From IMG/VR virus record IMGVR_UViG_3300038520_001826: 64,000 nt of DNA; one strand, given 5' to 3'. Shown one piece after another: positions 4,214-59,260 of the stretch; positions within the stretch are counted from its first letter, which is position 1; every line of letters begins with the position of its first letter. This DNA comes from an uncultured virus (IMG/VR IMGVR_UViG_3300038520_001826). Its lineage: Duplodnaviria > Heunggongvirae > Uroviricota > Caudoviricetes. The position numbers and the translations under genes are program-made. Under the pieces are notes generated by a model. That model was given only the letters and a program-made list of their open reading frames with translations. It did no database searches and was not told where the DNA came from.

Positions 4214-4313
4214 GTGAAAGGGCGGAGAAGGAGCAATACAGATAATTAAAGTGCGGAGGTAATTATCTGTTTATCGTCTAAACGGCCACCTTTGCTACAA
4301 CTTCTCCATGAAG

Positions 4314-4397
4314 TGTGGGAAGTGGGATTTGAACCCACGAAGCAATTCGCACAGGATTTTAAGCCCTGCTCCTTTGACCAAACTCGGATATCCCCAC
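4314..4397 (-). tRNA. tRNA-Leu (anticodon UAA)
   Basis: Acceptor GUGGGGA/UUCCCAC, anticodon stem CAGGG-CUUAAAA-UCCUG, long variable arm, T-arm GUGGG-UUCAAAU-CCCAC; no encoded CCA. Confidence 0.93.
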
Positions 4398-4735: not shown

Positions 4736-5215
4736 TCAAAGTTCTTCGGTTGTTTCAGTAGAAAGTAGGGCATCTACTGAACCATCCCAAGTTCCAGCCT
4801 TGTATTGGCTGTTAAGGGAGTTTCGTGTCTTCTTAACCCAAGAAGCAGCAAATTCTTCTGCGGACTCATATTGACCGCCACCAGACTTTGCGTGTTTAAC
4901 GGAGATTGCTCCGATAATTGGGTCATGGTTGTAATAAGCCATAATAGCCTCTTCAACAACGCCACAAATTCTGTCAGTAGCAACACGGACTGCGGCAGGA
5001 ATACTGCTCTTTTGTCCTCGACGGAACGGAGTTCCATCTCTTCCCTTCAATAGAGCCTTAAGTGCGTTATGTGCCGCATCTCGCTCATTTGGGTTTTCTG
5101 TTCCTACTTGAAGGTGCAACTGCACGATTTGTCGCAATCCACCGTCAAGGGCGGAATCTGCTTCCAAATACTCTTCAACTTCAATCTTCAAACTGTTCCA
5201 ATTCATATCATCCAT
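4736..5215 (-). CDS. hypothetical protein, paralog family A (member 1)
   Basis: RRGQKSSIPA, HAKSGG and Y..GTWDG shared with 6028, 7455 and 9577; start probably MDDMNW, downstream of a TTATATA box near 5260-5266. Confidence 0.8.
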   Translation of the reverse strand: MDDMNWNSLKIEVEEYLEADSALDGGLRQIVQLHLQVGTENPNERDAAHNALKALLKGRDGTPFRRGQKSSIPAAVRVATDRICGVVEEAIMAYYNHDPIIGAISVKHAKSGGGQYESAEEFAASWVKKTRNSLNSQYKAGTWDGSVDALLSTETTEEL

Positions 5216-5304
5216 ATGTATCAACTTCTGCCCGTAGGCGAAGTTCCATAGATTGACCATATATAAGCGATAACAAATCCAAACCCTCGATTCATTCCTG
5301 AACA

Positions 5305-5930
5305 TCATTCTAATCTTTCTAAACTTTCTAAAGTTTTTTCTTAGTCAATTCTATTCCATCAATCAATTCATGCAAAAAAACAACCAATGTGGTTTTCAAA
5401 CCAATAAAAATTAATTGATATTTTTACAAATAACATTTTAGATTAATAAATTCTGATGTTTCTAATCGAGGCGAGGTTATTCTAAAACGATTAAATAATG
5501 GGTTGTGCAACACAGCCTAGAAGAAAATTGGCGAAACCGTCATTTTGGCAACATTTTTCTTTTTTCTAATTTTCTAACGACCCCCATAGAGATTCTATAT
5601 CTCCCATAGGGTAATTCTGTAATAAGTAATAAGTCACACACATAATAGTAGTAGTAGTAAGTATTAGAATATTAGAATATTNNNNNNNNNNTTTCCTTCT
5701 GTTACACAACCCTCCAGTTTCTCAAGGTTTGTTTTATTCTAACGACCTCACTGACCTTAGAATAATGTTTTACTTTAATTATAGTATAATTATATCTTAT
5801 ACGATATTGTATATGTATATCCTATACATATAAGACCAATTGAAACATACCCTTTGAAAAGATATTCAGGATTGGTATTAACATTTGATACCTATGTAGT
5901 GTTAAGTTGATAGTATGTAATTAGGTGAAA
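5305..5930. other. AT-rich non-coding region with TTCTAA repeats; candidate replication origin or genome-end region
   Basis: No ORFs; many TTCTAA/TTAGAA hexamers; inverted repeat 5500-5512/5700-5712; lies between divergent transcription units; contains N gap 5682-5691. Confidence 0.4.
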
Positions 5931-5932
5931 CG

Positions 5933-5956
5933 CTTTGTGTTGAACCTTAAGTACCC
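5933..5956 (+). promoter_or_regulatory. TATA-type promoter (CTTTG-N7-CCTTAAGTACC)
   Basis: Same spacing and sequence as the elements at 6762-6784 and 7370-7392. Confidence 0.6.
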
Positions 5957-6027
5957 AATGAGCATTCTATGGACAGTCGTCGAGCATTGGTCAAAAACCA
6001 ACAAAACAAACGACAGGAGGAAAAAAT

Positions 6028-6567
6028 ATGGCTGAATTAACAAAAGCGAAATTTGAAGAGAGATGTGAACCAATTAAGGCTCACATGGCAAAGAACGACA
6101 TAGGGACTTGGGCGCCTTTGATTCAAGGAACTATGGATTTAGGACTTGCTTCTAAGTCTGATGAAGAACGTGGAAACCTTTGGGATTCTATCCGTTCTAT
6201 GGTAAAAAACGTCGAAGGCTTGACCTTGCGTCATGGACGACGTTCAAGCCTTCCAGCAGAAGTTATGGTAAGTGTCCAATCTGTGCGGAACGTAGTGAAG
6301 ACTGCTTGTGTTGCACTTATTGAGAACAATCCAGTATTCCTTGAGGTTATCCTACCTCATGGTAAAACTGGTGGTAATTTCACTCAAGACTCATTTGCAG
6401 AGTATTTTGCAGATAAGGCTGAATCTGCTCTTACTGCGGCTTACCGTGATAAGAACGGACAACGTTGGGATGGAATGCTCAACGACGATGGTATGACTGG
6501 AATGGTTGCTCCAGTTAAGGCCGAATCAAACAATGATGAATCTTCGGAGGTTAGCGAAGAGGAATGA
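6028..6567 (+). CDS. hypothetical protein, paralog family A (member 2)
   Basis: AGGAGG RBS; RHGRRSSLPA, PHGKTGG, YR...WDG; acidic tail. Confidence 0.85.
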   Translation: MAELTKAKFEERCEPIKAHMAKNDIGTWAPLIQGTMDLGLASKSDEERGNLWDSIRSMVKNVEGLTLRHGRRSSLPAEVMVSVQSVRNVVKTACVALIENNPVFLEVILPHGKTGGNFTQDSFAEYFADKAESALTAAYRDKNGQRWDGMLNDDGMTGMVAPVKAESNNDESSEVSEEE

Positions 6568-6618
6568 TTGTTTTGATTGAATGATGGTCAATGCTCGACG
6601 GCCACCCTATTCTTTTGC

Positions 6619-6720
6619 TAAGGGGGGATAATCACATTAGAGCCACTTCAACAACATGGCGTTTGATTGAAGGATAACTGATGAAATGATGTGAGAATCC
6701 CCCCTTATGCTGTTTTTTTT
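6619..6720 (+). terminator. long 3' hairpin followed by T-tract
   Basis: TAAGGGGGGAT/ATCCCCCCTTA and TCACATTA/TGATGTGA stems, then T8. Confidence 0.6.
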
Positions 6721-6745
6721 ATTGCTTAAGATTGCACAAAGCGCA

Positions 6746-6755
6746 ACCATATGGT
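6746..6755. promoter_or_regulatory. palindromic operator ACCATATGGT (copy 1 of 7)
   Basis: Copies at 6746, 7357, 8088, 8698, 9507, 10333 and variant 10556, all intergenic and all preceded by CA. Confidence 0.75.
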
Positions 6756-6817
6756 AGGATTCTTTGAATTATACCTTAAGTACCTAATCCAAATGCATAG
6801 GTCACGGAGGTAATCCA

Positions 6818-7195
6818 ATGTCTGAAACATACATAGTGATAGATACACAAGACAATGAGAGAAGCATTGGTTCTTATTCAAGTAAGAATCATGCCGAAGA
6901 AGATAGAATGCACCTGATGAAAACGCATTTTGAGCGAACTATGGGAGAAATGGAAAAATTAGCCAAATCACCCATCAAGCGAGCGATGAAGAAAATTAAG
7001 GTGGATTTAGACCACCCAGACGTTGATGAGGAAGAGCGTGATTTTGCAATTATGCGAAATCAAACTTTTGTTAAGATTGAGATGGTAAATGAACTTCACT
7101 TCAAGTATAAGAAGTTGAAAGCGTCAATTTCACCAGACAATCCTCGATACATCATCAAGACGATTAAGCATCGAGATTCTCGACGCTTTTCATAA
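6818..7195 (+). CDS. hypothetical protein
   Basis: GGAGG RBS, own promoter and terminator. Confidence 0.8.
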   Translation: MSETYIVIDTQDNERSIGSYSSKNHAEEDRMHLMKTHFERTMGEMEKLAKSPIKRAMKKIKVDLDHPDVDEEERDFAIMRNQTFVKIEMVNELHFKYKKLKASISPDNPRYIIKTIKHRDSRRFS

Positions 7196-7254
7196 ACGGT
7201 CTGATTGACTCATTTTGACTGGTTCGACCAGTGTTGCCACAAAAGTGGTTTTTC

Positions 7255-7294
7255 GCCTCCAACTCGATTCAGGTCGAGTTGGAGGCCCTTTTTT
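7255..7294 (+). terminator. hairpin plus T-tract terminator
   Basis: GCCTCCAACTCGA/TCGAGTTGGAGGC stem then TTTTTT. Confidence 0.7.
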
Positions 7295-7356
7295 CATTTT
7301 TAGCCCCTACCCATCCCTTGCGAATAAATATAACAAAAAGCATTTATAACGCTACA

Positions 7357-7366
7357 ACCATATGGT
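7357..7366. promoter_or_regulatory. palindromic operator (copy 2; full 14-bp CAACCATATGGTTG)
   Basis: 17 nt upstream of a TTAAGTA box. Confidence 0.75.
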
Positions 7367-7454
7367 TGTCTTTGACAACCTCATTAAGTACCTATTGTGC
7401 TTTCTATGAACGGTTTATGGTGCATAGTGAATCATCTACTATGGAGGAATCAAA

Positions 7455-7953
7455 ATGAACAACGAAAAATGGACAATTAAGAAACAACTAATCGTTTCTT
7501 TTGTGAACAACAACGATGTGGGCAATTTTGCCCCTATTGTTTTGGGTACAGTTGAAATGGTTGATAATACACAGCCTGATGACAGAACACCTTTGATTGA
7601 ATCTCTACGTTCAATCTTCAAGACTATTGACCCTAACAAGGTTAGTGGGGCCTTTCGTACAGGAAAAGCCTCTTCACTTCCCGCTAGTGNNNNNNNNNNG
7701 CATTATGTCGGATGTACGGGCAAATCTTCAAGATTTGTTTAATGCTCCACATATGTCTCAAATCCTTACGCCTCACGGCAAATCAAAGGATATGGGCGAT
7801 TTGTTCGTCAATGATGAACAATACGCTGAATATGAAGCAAAGCGCATTGAAAGCAGATTGACTCGATGGTATCGAAAACAAATCTGGGACGGTACGCTAG
7901 AAGGACTGCAAACGCTTTCTTTCCCTTCAATGGAGGTTGAAGAGGAAGAATGA
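7455..7953 (+). CDS. hypothetical protein, paralog family A (member 3), split by an assembly gap
   Basis: RTGKASSLPA before the N run (7690-7699); PHGKS and YRKQIWDG after it in another frame; collinear with 6028. Confidence 0.8.
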
Positions 7954-7989
7954 TTTGCTATGCACCATAGGCCACCTTTACTCCTTAAT

Positions 7990-8058
7990 GGGCAATAGGG
8001 CAATGAAAAGTAAAATGAAAATTAATTCCGACTTTTCGCCCTATTGCCCTTGTTTTTT
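7990..8058 (+). terminator. long 3' hairpin plus T-tract
   Basis: GGGCAATAGGGC/GCCCTATTGCCC stem then TTTTTT. Confidence 0.65.
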
Positions 8059-8087
8059 GTCGAGGTTGAAATGGCAAAGCCATTACA

Positions 8088-8097
8088 ACCATATGGT
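8088..8097. promoter_or_regulatory. palindromic operator (copy 3)
   Basis: CAACCATATGGTTG flanked by CAAAG and CTTTG. Confidence 0.7.
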
Positions 8098-8173
8098 TGA
8101 TAATCTTTGTATTATAAAACCTTGAAAAGGAAAACCGAATTTAATCGGTTTTTTAGTTGAATTGGGGTTCAAT

Positions 8174-8641
8174 TCAACGACGTGGCTCATAAGTCATACT
8201 TGATTCGATTCTTTTAATCTTATCAATTGCACTATCATATTCATGAATAGAGCGAATTTGCGTATGCATCATAATGCCCAGTATTCGACACATTCCTTCA
8301 ACGTCTCTAAATCGCTTTCGGACTTCAGACATAAACGTTTTACCCGTAAAGTATCTGAATTGTTTTCTGGTCATATTGGGATTAAGTCTGAACTCTTCCT
8401 GATACAATTCGTCAAGTTCTATTTCGTTGTTTGCGAATTTGATTTGATGGGTTTCAAGTTCTGTTTGTAGCCATGTTTGAAACTTAATCAAAACGGTCTG
8501 CAATATAGCGAACACTTCTGTTTGTGTTTTTGTTTGGCTGTTTTTCAAAGAAAGGAGGAACTGTATGAACCATATTGTTTGTTTGGTTCTGTCTTCCATT
8601 CTATGTAGGCTTCTTACGTCTTTAGGTTCTAATATTATCAT
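8174..8641 (-). CDS. hypothetical protein
   Basis: 155-aa ORF with CCTTAATATA box and operator upstream. Confidence 0.75.
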   Translation of the reverse strand: MIILEPKDVRSLHRMEDRTKQTIWFIQFLLSLKNSQTKTQTEVFAILQTVLIKFQTWLQTELETHQIKFANNEIELDELYQEEFRLNPNMTRKQFRYFTGKTFMSEVRKRFRDVEGMCRILGIMMHTQIRSIHEYDSAIDKIKRIESSMTYEPRR

Positions 8642-8697
8642 AGTTTTCCCATTCTTAGGTTAATTATTGATTATATTAAGGGTGCATCAAATGTGCA

Positions 8698-8707
8698 ACC
8701 ATATGGT
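8698..8707. promoter_or_regulatory. palindromic operator (copy 4)
   Basis: 18 nt from the minus-strand TTAATATA box. Confidence 0.7.
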
Positions 8708-8974
8708 ATGGCTTTGTCATACCTTGACTTAAAAAATTGAGGGCTTCCGCCTACTAAATATCGAATTATACAGACGTTTTCTATATCGGGCATTAACTAG
8801 TATTGCCAACTTATCTATCACGTGTGCATTCTCGCCTATCTTTCGGCTTCAGCCCCTAATGGTGTTATATGGCCAATCAATTGCCATTGGAGTAATTGGA
8901 GAATATAGAACGGCATTCCCTTAATTTGCCAGATTAGTCACCTTTCGGCTATTGGATTCATCTATATCCTATTG

Positions 8975-9461: not shown

Positions 9462-9506
9462 GTCCTAGAATCAATTAAAGGGTATTTAACGGGCTTGACA
9501 AAGACA

Positions 9507-9516
9507 ACCATATGGT
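9507..9516. promoter_or_regulatory. palindromic operator (copy 5) between divergent promoters
   Basis: TATA boxes at 9483-9489 (-) and 9538-9546 (+). Confidence 0.75.
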
Positions 9517-9576
9517 AATGCACTTTGGGACAGAACCTTAAATATACCCTATGAAACCTATAAACGGTGAAAGCCA

Positions 9577-10196: not shown

Positions 10197-10332
10197 GCCT
10201 TTAACCCCTCAAACGTGCGTGTCCTAAGCATGACCATAAAAACTGCTTGGCTTCGGCCATTTTTTAGCCCCTACCCTCCCTGTGAATTAATCACCTATTA
10301 TCGAAAGAACATAATGTTTAATTAATTCAACA

Positions 10333-10565
10333 ACCATATGGTATTGTTAATTTATGCGTTATGCATTAGGGTATTATGCTATTATATGTAATCTATATAG
10401 ATAATCTTAGAAATATATAGATATGACTCTTATTAAGCCAATTATAGCCAAAATAATAGGCCGTTAATCAATACACCATAAATAAATTAAAACGTCGTTA
10501 TGCACTATGCATTGGCATATTAACGCCCTATTATTCTAAATAAAAATAATACACAACCATATGGC
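10333..10565. promoter_or_regulatory. palindromic operator copies 6 (10333) and 7 (10556, variant) in an AT-rich spacer
   Basis: CAACCATATGGT and CAACCATATGGC. Confidence 0.6.
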
Positions 10566-10777
10566 TTTGTTCCAATTTTTATTTTTATATATGAACAATG
10601 CATCATTGAGCATTTAAGCTTAAATAATGCATTATTAATCACTTTAGCAGCCATAATTAAGTCTAAACAACCTATTTAGCATCAATGCATCGAATTAGTT
10701 TGCAAGATATGGTTAAAATGTTAAACCTAACAATGCTTATAATATAGACTGAACTACCTAACCTTGAGGCAAGATAT

Positions 10778-31506: not shown

Positions 31507-34008
31507 ATGCCTCTTCTCATTGAAAAGGATAAAGATTCTTCTGAAGAGATTATACGTCTTTTCGAGAAAACAAGAGTCGCTTATCTATCTGCTCGCACCG
31601 ACCCCAAAGAATATGGGAATAGGTGGCGTAAAGCAATTGATGACATTAGAGAAATCTATGAGCAATTGAATGAACTTAGTAAAGAAATGAAAAATTTTGT
31701 TCAAGAAAACGAATTAGAAAACAAAGAAGCAAAAGACCCTACAAGTAATATCGCTGAAAAGATTTACAACGGTATTAAAGAAATGCGATTCAGTTCTGAT
31801 TTAATTTCAGACCCATTCGCAAGAAAATACAAAGGGGATGTTCTTGAAGGATTGCTTTCTTCTCCAGAAATGATGGTCAAATTTGTTCACTATGCTTTAA
31901 GAAATGATGATAAAGCACTTCCAAAAGAAGTTTGGAGCATTAAAGACATGGAAGCCGACACGATAACTGATGGGTTGAAAGGACTTGACCTAGATGAAGA
32001 GGACATTCCTCTCTATATTATCGAACAGTATGGTGACGATAAAGACTCAAAAAAGGTAGAAAGCAAAGTTAAGGCTGCCTTAGAGATATTAGAAACGTTA
32101 TTTTTCTCCAAATACTCAAAAGAAGATTTAAAAGACTTGAAGGAAATTGATGGTATTGAAAAGTCCGAACAAAAATCTAAAAGTGATTTCATCATTCCTA
32201 ATAAACCAATGTATAGAATCTTCGATATTGATGACATGAATGAATTAAAGGGCTTCTCAGGAAATTACCTTGTTCAAGAAAAGTATGATGGTATGAGAAT
32301 ACAGATTCATAAGATTGATGGTAATGTTCGTATCTATTCATATAATGAAAAAGATATTTCTGAAAAGTGCAAAAAACAGGTTGAAGAACTTAAAAAGAAA
32401 AAGTATGGAGATTGCATTCTTGATGGCGAATTGATTCTTTTTGACGGTGACGAAGCCCTACATCGTGCTGATACTATTGCTCATGTATTTAAGAATAAAT
32501 ACCCTGATGCTAAGTTAAGAGCGCACGTTTTTGACATTATGAGACACAATGAACAAGAATTAGTAGAAGAAGAACTTGATAATCGAATCAATACTTTATT
32601 TAACAACTATTCAATGCATTCAACAGAAGCAATAGCATTTCCATCAAAGAAAGATACAAGAACTGCTGATAACTTGAAGGATGTGGAAGAGTATGCGAAA
32701 GAGATTATGGATATGCCTACATCCGAAGGCGTAGTTATCAAGGATATGACCTCGACGTATTACATAGGCACAAGAAAGAATCCTAAGTGGATTAAGTGGA
32801 AGAAGTTTGTTGATTTGGATTTAATTGTTCTTGATAAGAAAACTACAAAATCAAATCTAAATTCATATACATTGGGAGCAGGGCCAGCCGAAGGAGAAGG
32901 AAAGTTTTATTCTGAAATTGAAGGTAAAGTCTATATGGATGTTGGTAAGGCATTAAATACCAAAATAGATGTAGATATTGGAGATATTGTTCGAGTTAAG
33001 GTTGATGAAGTTAAAAAGAATGGAGATAGATATACTTTGTTTTCTGCAAAGGTTATTGAAGTTCCTGAAGTTGAATATCCCGACAAAATTGTTACACTAG
33101 AAATGCTTTCACAAGATACTAAGAAATCATTGAATTATGATGTTAAAGCATTAGAAAAGGGAATTATTGTTACAGACCATATTCATGGAGAAACTAATGT
33201 AATTATTAAATCCGATTTTGATGGTTTTACTATTTATGGTTTTGAAGAAAGTAATCTTATGTCTAAGAACGCATTAATTGATATTGATATGTGGAAGGCA
33301 CAAGCCGAGGAGATAATGAAAACTAAGCAATCACAATTAACTCAAATAGTATTTAATCATTTAAAAGAAAACGGTTCCAAAACTCCCAAAGAAATACACA
33401 ACTTCTTAGTTAAAAATCATAAATCTATTTATGAAGACATATTGGAAAGTAAATTAAATAGAGTCAAGGATTGGTTTGAAAATAGAGATGGCATTTCTTT
33501 TGATATGAAAACTAAAAAATTATTTTCTGAGGATGATAAAGTTATTAAAGAACCAGCGATGTTAAAAGCATATAAAACTCCAGAAGAATATCGTAAAGGT
33601 AATTTTAAGATTTATTTGAGAGATGATAATAATTTAAACTTTACAATATCTGTTGGCGGAGAAACAATGCATTGGTATATTGAACTTAATGAAGAGGATG
33701 ATATCTTCGATTTATTTGGAAAGGCGGGTAAATATCCTGCTGAAGTTTCAAAGAATGTTTCTAAGGATAAGGTAATTGATTCTGGCAAAATTGAATTAGG
33801 ACTACAAAGGCATGGTTATCATGAGTATTTCTTAGAAGGAAATAAGTTTGAAACAAAATTACACATTAGAGTATTACCTGTAAAAGATAAGAAAATGTGG
33901 CTTGCATGGACTGGATTCAAACAAACCCCTGCTGATAAGGACAATGACGAAGGAATCTGGAACATCTATGAGGATAGGTTTAACGAATTAACCATACCAC
34001 AAGAGTAA
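31507..34008 (+). CDS. lig: ATP-dependent DNA ligase with N- and C-terminal extra domains
   Basis: EKYDGMR (motif I), LDGEL (III), VFDIM (IIIa), EGVVIK (IV), WIKWK (V), then OB-fold-like segment. Confidence 0.92.
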   Translation: MPLLIEKDKDSSEEIIRLFEKTRVAYLSARTDPKEYGNRWRKAIDDIREIYEQLNELSKEMKNFVQENELENKEAKDPTSNIAEKIYNGIKEMRFSSDLISDPFARKYKGDVLEGLLSSPEMMVKFVHYALRNDDKALPKEVWSIKDMEADTITDGLKGLDLDEEDIPLYIIEQYGDDKDSKKVESKVKAALEILETLFFSKYSKEDLKDLKEIDGIEKSEQKSKSDFIIPNKPMYRIFDIDDMNELKGFSGNYLVQEKYDGMRIQIHKIDGNVRIYSYNEKDISEKCKKQVEELKKKKYGDCILDGELILFDGDEALHRADTIAHVFKNKYPDAKLRAHVFDIMRHNEQELVEEELDNRINTLFNNYSMHSTEAIAFPSKKDTRTADNLKDVEEYAKEIMDMPTSEGVVIKDMTSTYYIGTRKNPKWIKWKKFVDLDLIVLDKKTTKSNLNSYTLGAGPAEGEGKFYSEIEGKVYMDVGKALNTKIDVDIGDIVRVKVDEVKKNGDRYTLFSAKVIEVPEVEYPDKIVTLEMLSQDTKKSLNYDVKALEKGIIVTDHIHGETNVIIKSDFDGFTIYGFEESNLMSKNALIDIDMWKAQAEEIMKTKQSQLTQIVFNHLKENGSKTPKEIHNFLVKNHKSIYEDILESKLNRVKDWFENRDGISFDMKTKKLFSEDDKVIKEPAMLKAYKTPEEYRKGNFKIYLRDDNNLNFTISVGGETMHWYIELNEEDDIFDLFGKAGKYPAEVSKNVSKDKVIDSGKIELGLQRHGYHEYFLEGNKFETKLHIRVLPVKDKKMWLAWTGFKQTPADKDNDEGIWNIYEDRFNELTIPQE

Positions 34009-58294: not shown

Positions 58295-58440
58295 TGTTCG
58301 CCTTCCTTGTTTCTCATCAATCTTCTCATATAATCTTCAACGCTATCATCGGTGATATTTGTTCCACCAAATGCAGCGAAAAAGAGCAATAAGAGAACTG
58401 TTAAGAAAACAAGAAGAAAGAACCAATCCCAGCCTTCCAT
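58291..58440 (-). CDS. 49-aa membrane-anchored peptide, not in ORF track
   Basis: MEGWDWFFLLVFLTVLLLLFFAAFGG...; coupled to both neighbours. Confidence 0.6.
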   Translation of the reverse strand: MEGWDWFFLLVFLTVLLLLFFAAFGGTNITDDSVEDYMRRLMRNKEGEQ

Positions 58441-59033
58441 TACCAATCAACTCCCAATTCAACAAATTGTTCTTGTTCAACAGAAAATGCTTTAACTAAA
58501 CCATTATCCTGTCCATACTTCCATAAGTCATACACTAGTTGAGTATCTTTCATACAATACTCTACTACTTCATCATACTTACCCATCTTCCATAATTTAG
58601 GTGCATCAGCACTATCCATGAGTTTAGAATCATCCATAGTGCATTTAACTAAATTACTAAGTTGAAACCTTTCACCATGTTCTTTATTTAAGATTCTACT
58701 TGTATCAATATACTTCTTTTCATCGAGGTATTTGTTGATACAAAATATATCTAATGAATCTCTAAGAATTGGCAAATCAAATGAAGCAATATTGTGTCCT
58801 AACAATACTCCGCCCTTTTGCAAATGTTCATCCAAGTCATATTTCAATTCTCTAATAGATTTAATTACATGACCCGATTTAGCAAAAGAATCAACAGGTT
58901 CATCAACATAAACAGTTCCATTATTTCCATCCCATGTAGCAACTGTTGATACTTGAAACATATGAGTATTTCCAAATCCACCGATGTCATAAGACATATT
59001 TTTGGTTTCTAAGTCAATAGCCATTACAGACAT
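58440..59033 (-). CDS. DEDD/RNase H-like 3'-5' exonuclease
   Basis: AIDLET (ExoI), GHNIASFD (ExoII), YCMKD (ExoIII). Confidence 0.88.
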   Translation of the reverse strand: MSVMAIDLETKNMSYDIGGFGNTHMFQVSTVATWDGNNGTVYVDEPVDSFAKSGHVIKSIRELKYDLDEHLQKGGVLLGHNIASFDLPILRDSLDIFCINKYLDEKKYIDTSRILNKEHGERFQLSNLVKCTMDDSKLMDSADAPKLWKMGKYDEVVEYCMKDTQLVYDLWKYGQDNGLVKAFSVEQEQFVELGVDW

Positions 59034-59038
59034 AGTTA

Positions 59039-59260
59039 TCATTCCTGTTGCCAAAGTTTAGAAATCTTCTTTTGCTCATCATCACCTTTATCTTCTTCAA
59101 CATCTGTTCTTCTCTTTAAGAAGCAAACGATGTTGTTTCCTGCTACTGTTAGCATAGAACAACATTCCCAACCATCAGCACCATATGTATCTAAAGATTC
59201 AATAATTACTTTTGGCCCTTTTGCTACCTCAAAAACAAGGTATGTGTTTTCCCACTTCAT
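59039..59260 (-). CDS. DUF4177-like small protein
   Basis: MKWE...LDTYGADGWEC...CFLKR pattern. Confidence 0.6.
   Translation of the reverse strand: MKWENTYLVFEVAKGPKVIIESLDTYGADGWECCSMLTVAGNNIVCFLKRRTDVEEDKGDDEQKKISKLWQQE

Follow-up and report, generated by a model that had tools for sequence, protein, structure and literature searches.

Compensatory evolution points to a selected RNA helix between the leader and 3' UTR of two paralogous genes in a putative magrovirus

The predicted leader of a small viral gene, here called gene B, is complementary to its own 3' UTR, and this raises the question of whether the pairing is a selected feature of the mRNA or a chance repeat in AT-rich DNA, and of what a message closed in this way would do. 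The gene lies in a 64,000-nucleotide stretch from an uncultured virus (IMG/VR record IMGVR_UViG_3300038520_001826), which is referred to in its full length as the window; positions are those of the window, on the + strand unless noted. The initial annotation of this DNA had described a pairing of 5976-5993 with 6585-6602 over 18 bp with three G.U pairs on the + strand, and both the coordinates and the letters proved exact. This helix 1 joins GTCGTCGAGCATTGGTCA to TGGTCAATGCTCGACGGC through 18 contiguous pairs (15 Watson-Crick and 3 G.U, -26.7 kcal/mol), and the opposite strand of the same arms forms 12 pairs only (-22.4 kcal/mol). A second helix, noted at the same time as lying between the stop codon and the ribosome-binding site, is likewise borne out: helix 2 pairs 6002-6009 (CAAAACAA) with 6568-6575 (TTGTTTTG) by eight Watson-Crick pairs.

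Architecture of the clamped genes

The loop of this panhandle is the gene B ORF itself (6028-6567, 179 aa). The 5' strand of helix 2 stops 5 nt short of the Shine-Dalgarno sequence (SD) AGGAGG (6015-6020), which is unpaired in the transcript fold and sits just inside the clamp, while the first base of the 3' strand is directly 3' of the TGA stop (6565-6567). Helix 2 is weak and A/U-rich, and helix 1 begins 17 nt past the stop. At the outer end of the clamp stands GGCCACC (6600-6606), made up of the end of the helix and an unpaired C-rich tail and common to genes B and C. A likely terminator follows at 6619-6721, with a long hairpin (6619-6637/6689-6707) and then a T-run (6713-6721; z-score -3.5). 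The stem of this hairpin carries compensatory changes in the relative L001 (CAC/GTG to CGC/GCG) and, because such changes occur between close relatives, it too can be regarded as a selected RNA structure.

In archaeal promoters, the first transcribed base is expected some 20-24 nt past the TATA-like box. The TATA-like box CTTAAGTA at 5946-5953 lies 22 nt upstream of the 5' arm of helix 1, and from its position we infer that it is the gene B promoter; the motif recurs at 6775 and, with one mismatch, at 7383. Read from the sequences of ten lineages, the helix starts 20-24 nt past a TATA-like A/T-rich 8-mer, and contigs from RNA libraries cover gene B from 5983/5984. Both observations fit the earlier claim that the 5' arm begins about at the transcription start predicted from the TATA box.

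The same layout is found at gene C (7455-7953), a paralogue with 30-42% amino-acid identity to B over the aligned parts. Its arms, 7412-7435 and 7950-7973, form 24 contiguous pairs (20 Watson-Crick and 4 G.U on the + strand) and are unrelated in sequence to those of gene B. The TATA-like box ATTAAGTA (7383-7390) lies 21 nt upstream of the 5' arm, a free SD follows this arm by 7 nt, and the 3' arm, which takes in the TGA stop (7951-7953), finishes with GGCC before an ACC, so that GGCCACC again marks the outer end. The terminator (7990-8058) consists of a hairpin (7990-8001/8038-8049) and a T-run (8053-8058; z-score -4.5). The window contains two runs of 10 N, at 5682-5691 and 7691-7700. The second of these breaks the frame of gene C, which is intact in relatives, and the break is not biological because the run stands for 28 bases in these relatives. 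Genes B and C are best explained as separate one-gene transcription units of a magrovirus.

A third paralogue, gene A (4736-5218, - strand), provides a contrast case that is free of a clamp, with a leader/trailer duplex of -11.6 kcal/mol. Its orthologue in G005 is also without a clamp (-15.7 kcal/mol between leader and trailer), and a gapped duplex of -28.5 kcal/mol at the orthologue in G004 was judged spurious. The leader of gene A holds a small local GC hairpin instead (5219-5245, - strand; GCC-UACG-GGC); in the orthologous leaders of L004, L047 and L049, the far clade has GCC-UUCG-GGC at this place and other lineages have a longer C/G stem. Such a hairpin would fit an alternative cover for a 5' end. 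A 164-aa metagenomic protein (P0013) joins the N terminus of paralogue A to the body of paralogue B, either through recombination between paralogues or through chimeric assembly.

Evidence for selection on the RNA

To place the two clamps among the other genes of the window, 60 nt of leader was paired with 60 nt of trailer for each of its 58 ORFs. Genes C (-38.9 kcal/mol) and B (-38.4 kcal/mol) rank first and second, with the third best at -26.1 kcal/mol, and none of 3306 mismatched leader/trailer controls (mean -14.4, sd 4.7, minimum -32.3 kcal/mol) reaches the energy of either. The third-best duplex (58440-59054) sets purine-rich against pyrimidine-rich sequence inside coding sequence and was judged to be due to chance. 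Helix length alone is not significant, because the AT-rich window holds 12 contiguous helices of at least 18 bp on the + strand (G.U allowed, arms at most 3 kb apart); the placement and energy of the B and C clamps together are significant and lie beyond chance.

Folding of the predicted transcript (5976-6720), a check that the initial annotation had proposed, gives the 18-bp helix 1 in both the minimum-energy and the centroid structure. The leaders of B and C fold weakly when taken alone (-8.4 and -8.6 kcal/mol, z-scores -0.9 and -0.65), and the clamp therefore meets no strong competitor. Over its whole length, the predicted B transcript folds at -242 kcal/mol against -192 kcal/mol for shuffled sequences (z-score -9.9, from 20 shuffles only), and its coding part may hold further structure.

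Loci of gene B for comparison were taken from viral and metagenome contigs. In near relatives, the arms are unchanged although the ORF has diverged by several per cent, and the 5' arm of helix 1 is invariant across the near clade. The far clade of group B (L004 and L013-L016; 61-68% amino-acid identity) carries the helix 1 arms GTCGTTGAGCATTAAACATC/GATGGCTAATGCTCAACGGC, in which two pairs are changed in a compensatory manner, C-G to U-A and G-C to A-U, and helix 2 is replaced by CACCAAAA/TTTTGGTG. Across the group B alignment, with its 12 distinct sequences, 95% of the cells of helix 1 are paired. The changes in group C are larger: in L014 and L023, five consecutive pairs differ on both sides (CATAG/CTATG to AGATT/AATCT), and the inner part of the helix is remodelled.

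Other viral contigs of 84-96 kb again contain members of the family as orthologues of A, B and C, and the clamps of their B and C orthologues (L030-L033, L044, L046 and L054) are of unrelated sequence. L030, L031 and L033 show compensatory differences among one another, and L054, a further lineage, has a 13-bp helix, GTCTAAGGGGGAC/GTCCCCCTTAGGC. The clamp is thus kept with different arm sequences in at least five virus lineages of orthologues. Clamp helices measure 18-28 bp and, in lineages beyond the B and C of the window, are interrupted by 1x1 or 2x2 mismatches only.

The 15 distinct helices, counted without gaps at each locus and read by eye, contain 288 Watson-Crick pairs, 41 G.U, 4 A.C and 16 other mismatches, although these are not independent events because related sequences share pairs. 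In all 15 loci, the duplex of the + strand is more stable than that of the opposite strand. This greater stability of the coding-strand duplex, together with the 41 G.U pairs against 4 A.C, argues that selection acts on the RNA. A covariation count based on MAFFT alignments was rejected, as it misaligned the diverged arms and undercounted their changes (e.g. 0 compensatory pairs for C2). In a shuffle control on the B alignment (A4), the covariation score was reached by 35 of 500 shuffles, a modest result from covarying sequences that represent few independent lineages. The case draws its strength from several lineages that place unrelated arms in the same architecture. On this comparative evidence, the pairing of leader and 3' UTR shows itself to be a selected RNA structure, and the initial proposal of RNA-level selection for a message closed in this way is upheld on several counts: by compensatory changes within and between groups of orthologues, by the G.U bias and the strand preference, and by a paralogue with the same architecture. 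Loss of complementarity in homologues had been named as the outcome that would speak against it; the covariation analysis found the complementarity kept.

Of the 15 loci, 14 have pairing that overlaps the stop codon or leaves at most one base between the two; at C_L001 and C_L012 the in-frame stop was taken from the sequence itself, and at L009 an N in the 3' arm leaves the contact unscored. At every locus the SD is free and follows the inner end of the 5' strand at a distance of about 4-14 nt. Conservation is highest in the outer 11-14 pairs of the clamp, and the inner ones vary. An unpaired C-rich tail follows the helix, reading ACC (then T or C) in the groups of the window's B and C, CCA or CCCA in five other distinct loci, and CCCT in L054.

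RNA-library contigs from two studies cover 5983-6093 and 6093-6607 as separate pieces. They include the 3' arm of gene B (6585-6602) and run 11-26 nt past 6607, to about 6630, where they enter the terminator stem as it reads in a slightly divergent strain; the cover of gene C begins at 7438. Assembled contigs reveal neither the ends of a transcript nor whether it is a single continuous molecule, and the libraries may contain carried-over DNA; no contig falls in 5850-5973 or 6656-7213, and gaps of this kind carry no weight alone. The cover agrees with a transcript that holds both arms, and the positions of promoter and terminator fit with it. A transcript ending before the 3' arm, which would have counted against the proposal, is not what the contigs indicate, as they include this arm and run beyond it.

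Precedents and possible roles

To our knowledge, long-range pairing between 5' and 3' UTRs has been described for only a few bacterial mRNAs, and in archaea it is only suspected from genetics. Full-text searches of the literature on archaea and their viruses, covering panhandles and processing stems, long-range UTR interactions and closed-loop or circularised mRNAs, found no description of such a clamp. The 16S and 23S rRNA processing stems of archaea contain a bulge-helix-bulge that is cut by the splicing endonuclease, giving circular intermediates. These stems resemble the clamp in that the leader and trailer of an archaeal transcript pair around a whole gene product; the clamp differs in that it has no bulge-helix-bulge, encloses an ORF and left no junction in the RNA contigs. 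Archaeal rRNA processing is treated in the available text of PMC7714728.

The closest precedent appears to be the hbs mRNA of Bacillus subtilis, for which Braun, Durand and Condon (2017) describe long-range pairing between 5' UTR and 3' UTR (PMC5737220). In the available text of that paper, hbs is likewise a one-gene mRNA for a small abundant protein, its 3' partner lies just upstream of the terminator, and the pairing, in which a strong SD is involved, shields the leader from nucleases; the hbs duplex, however, is 14 bp long (about -19 kcal/mol) and lies within the leader rather than at its first base. The clamp has 18-28 bp, starts at the predicted +1, abuts the stop and belongs to an archaeal virus, and the evidence presented here for it is comparative only. 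In the Staphylococcus aureus icaR mRNA, the 3' UTR masks the SD and invites RNase III, an arrangement that is repressive. The SD of the clamped genes, by contrast, is free, and RNase III was found in none of three related viral genomes. Both icaR and Salmonella hilD, named for 5'/3'-UTR pairing in the available text of PMC5737220, share with the clamp an intramolecular contact between 5' and 3' UTR, one that alters the fate of these mRNAs. Similar in setting is translational control in haloarchaea, which are euryarchaea, where 5' and 3' UTRs are needed together (Brenneis and Soppa 2009, PMC2636863); the requirement is a genetic one, and the available text of that paper, in which neither 'base pair' nor 'complementar' occurs, does not attribute it to pairing.

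Compared with these systems, what seems new here is pairing at the very end of the mRNA, over a much longer helix that abuts the stop, in an archaeal virus. Several lineages of abundant ocean viruses have preserved, through compensatory changes, a helix that runs from the predicted +1 to the stop. It offers a concrete, sequence-defined element with which to ask how archaeal mRNAs are protected from decay and whether prokaryotes have closed-loop translation, and it marks the B/C gene family as probably under unusual post-transcriptional control.

As roles for a closed message, the initial annotation had put forward re-initiation, protection of the ends, and processing or circularisation. The reading that we favour, with moderate confidence, is that the clamp, by holding the mRNA end to end, would shield its 5' end from decay. 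In euryarchaea, decay that depends on the 5' end would be carried out by 5'-to-3' exonucleases of the RNase J or aCPSF2 type. The first 18-24 nt of the B or C mRNA would pair with the 3' UTR at or just past the stop, leaving the SD and the ORF in a loop closed by the long helix, with the C-rich tail and the terminator hairpin beyond. A 5'-triphosphate end buried in this helix would be inaccessible to 5'-end-dependent decay, and the terminator hairpin would guard the 3' end. With the helix directly beside the stop, ribosomes that terminate would be expected to open its inner part only; the outer 11-14 bp would stay closed during termination, and the stability of the clamp would be coupled to translation. 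Protection alone does not explain why the partner of the leader lies beside the stop, since a local hairpin would suffice to protect an end, and for this reason a second reading that involves the hand-over of ribosomes is kept alive.

According to that second reading, which is possible although we think it rather unlikely, the stop codon would be held a few nucleotides from the unpaired SD, such that small subunits released at the one could re-initiate at the other without leaving the mRNA, much as in the eukaryotic closed loop but by means of RNA alone. The near-constant contact of the paired region with the stop (14 of 15 loci) and the ever-free SD are what it would predict, and the enclosure of the ORF exceeds what the protection of an end needs. 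Termination-reinitiation has been reported for archaea in the available text of PMC6728339, and the haloarchaeal requirement for 5' and 3' UTRs together (PMC2636863, available text) points the same way. Compact 3' UTRs would, however, put an arm near the stop anyway, and at gene B only the weak helix 2 abuts it, with helix 1 starting 17 nt downstream.

We consider it unlikely that the duplex is a processing substrate, cut or joined by an enzyme to give a trimmed or circular mRNA, for which a double-strand-specific nuclease, the tRNA 3'-end machinery or an RNA ligase would be candidates. The length of the helices, about two turns of near-perfect double-stranded RNA at 18-28 bp, is that of an RNase III substrate, yet RNase III (PF14622) was found in 0 of 3 related viral genomes. 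The conserved helix end with its unpaired tail, GGCCACC at B and C, with GCCCCA or GGCCCA as the counterpart in other lineages, would suit a processing site, and a ligase-domain protein of the virus gives a weak RNA-ligase match. Against this, the B and C helices are uninterrupted and contain no bulge-helix-bulge (two 3-nt bulges on opposite strands, 4 bp apart), searches with Rfam and ARAGORN find nothing tRNA-like, and the RNA contigs pass through the tail into the terminator. No back-splice joint was present among the contigs of four RNA runs, from which rare forms are dropped, and loose contig ends at 6606/6607 are not junctions because they match the downstream sequence of the relatives themselves.

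It is improbable, in our estimate, that the duplex serves as an RNA operator through which the encoded protein or another viral factor would bind and autoregulate the message. The clamp is confined to the B and C lineages of one family (2 of the 58 genes in the window), and paralogue A is without it, as might be expected of an operator; but the arms differ wholly between lineages and the protein has no recognisable RNA-binding fold. As the arm sequences are wholly different where the proteins are alike, a binding factor could only recognise the shape of the duplex.

None of the readings accounts for the conserved terminal pairs or for the C-rich tail. It would be a long shot to take the clamp for a mimic of a tRNA acceptor stem, as the helix beginning at +1, the terminal G-C and U.G pairs and the unpaired NCC(A)-like tail might suggest. 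If this were true, host RNase Z and the CCA-adding enzyme would remove the terminator and finish the end, and both termini of the mRNA would be locked in a minihelix, a substitute for cap and tail on the message of an archaeal virus.

The least probable reading, a DNA-level inverted repeat that acts as a recombination or inversion site or forms the terminal repeats of a mobile cassette, is disfavoured: inverted repeats do flank a discrete gene, P0013 resembles an A/B chimera and was counted as a sign of recombination, and in L014 and G003 the C cassette as a whole has the opposite orientation to B, but mismatches are G.U on the coding strand (41 against 4 A.C), the ORF is flipped between its arms in 0 of the 21 sequences of alignments A4 and A5 (14 B and 7 C sequences, 12 and 6 distinct), the arms sit between promoter and SD, the B and C repeats differ in sequence, unlike copies of one mobile element, and the inverted C cassettes carry promoter and terminator along. 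Since the promoter, the arms, the ORF and the terminator of C are all reversed together in these two far-clade members, the cassettes move as units.

The encoded family and the virus

The 179-aa product of gene B is mostly helical with an acidic C-terminal tail. It has 13 close homologues, a profile search gathered 201 representative clusters of its family, and Pfam and PHROG searches with proteins A, B and C gave no match. An AlphaFold model of B (mean pLDDT 69) has no match in the PDB at E <= 0.001, tblastn of B against a phage collection found none, and neither did scans of genome contigs with the B family and with the viral chaperonin. Searches for further loci gave a 29-residue fragment only for P0024 and nothing for P0030.

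The gene content of the window identifies it as a magrovirus, one of the tailed viruses that infect Marine Group II archaea. It encodes a terminase, a portal protein, a prohead protease and an HK97-type capsid protein whose 11 matching records all come from tailed viruses of haloarchaea and methanogens, and an ATP-dependent DNA ligase (31507-34008) lies within the structural module, between the portal and protease genes; the ligase-domain protein is the one with the weak RNA-ligase match. Close relatives are marine viral contigs of 66-91 kb, one of them complete at 90.9 kb with terminal repeats, in which the family B DNA polymerase is in two pieces (3 of 3) and a chaperonin is present (2 of 2). 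A halovirus-like capsid, a DNA ligase in the structural module, a family B DNA polymerase, a chaperonin and a genome of about 90 kb are the features given for magroviruses in the available text of PMC5434244, and a split family B DNA polymerase is that of magrovirus group B (PMC5434244). These features of the window and its relatives, those of group B in particular, support the euryarchaeal setting that the initial annotation had assumed.

A tRNA-Leu gene (anticodon UAA; 4313-4397, - strand) lies between the helicase gene and the block of small genes. At the gathering threshold, Rfam finds only tRNA in the window, and over 5900-8150 it gives one sub-threshold hit that is due to chance. The palindrome AACCATATGGTT (at most one mismatch) occurs 8 times in the window against 0.22 expected, at 6745-6756, 7356-7367, 8087-8098, 8568-8579, 8697-8708, 9506-9517, 10332-10343 and 10555-10566. 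The available text of the 2017 magrovirus paper (PMC5434244) contains neither 'promoter' nor 'palindrom'. The palindrome is probably an operator for a virus-encoded regulator of this gene block. The copies at 6745, 7356, 8087 and 8697, whose flanks were read, lie some 20-35 nt upstream of the TATA-like box of a small gene, and the motif is also found ahead of B and C orthologues in other viral contigs.
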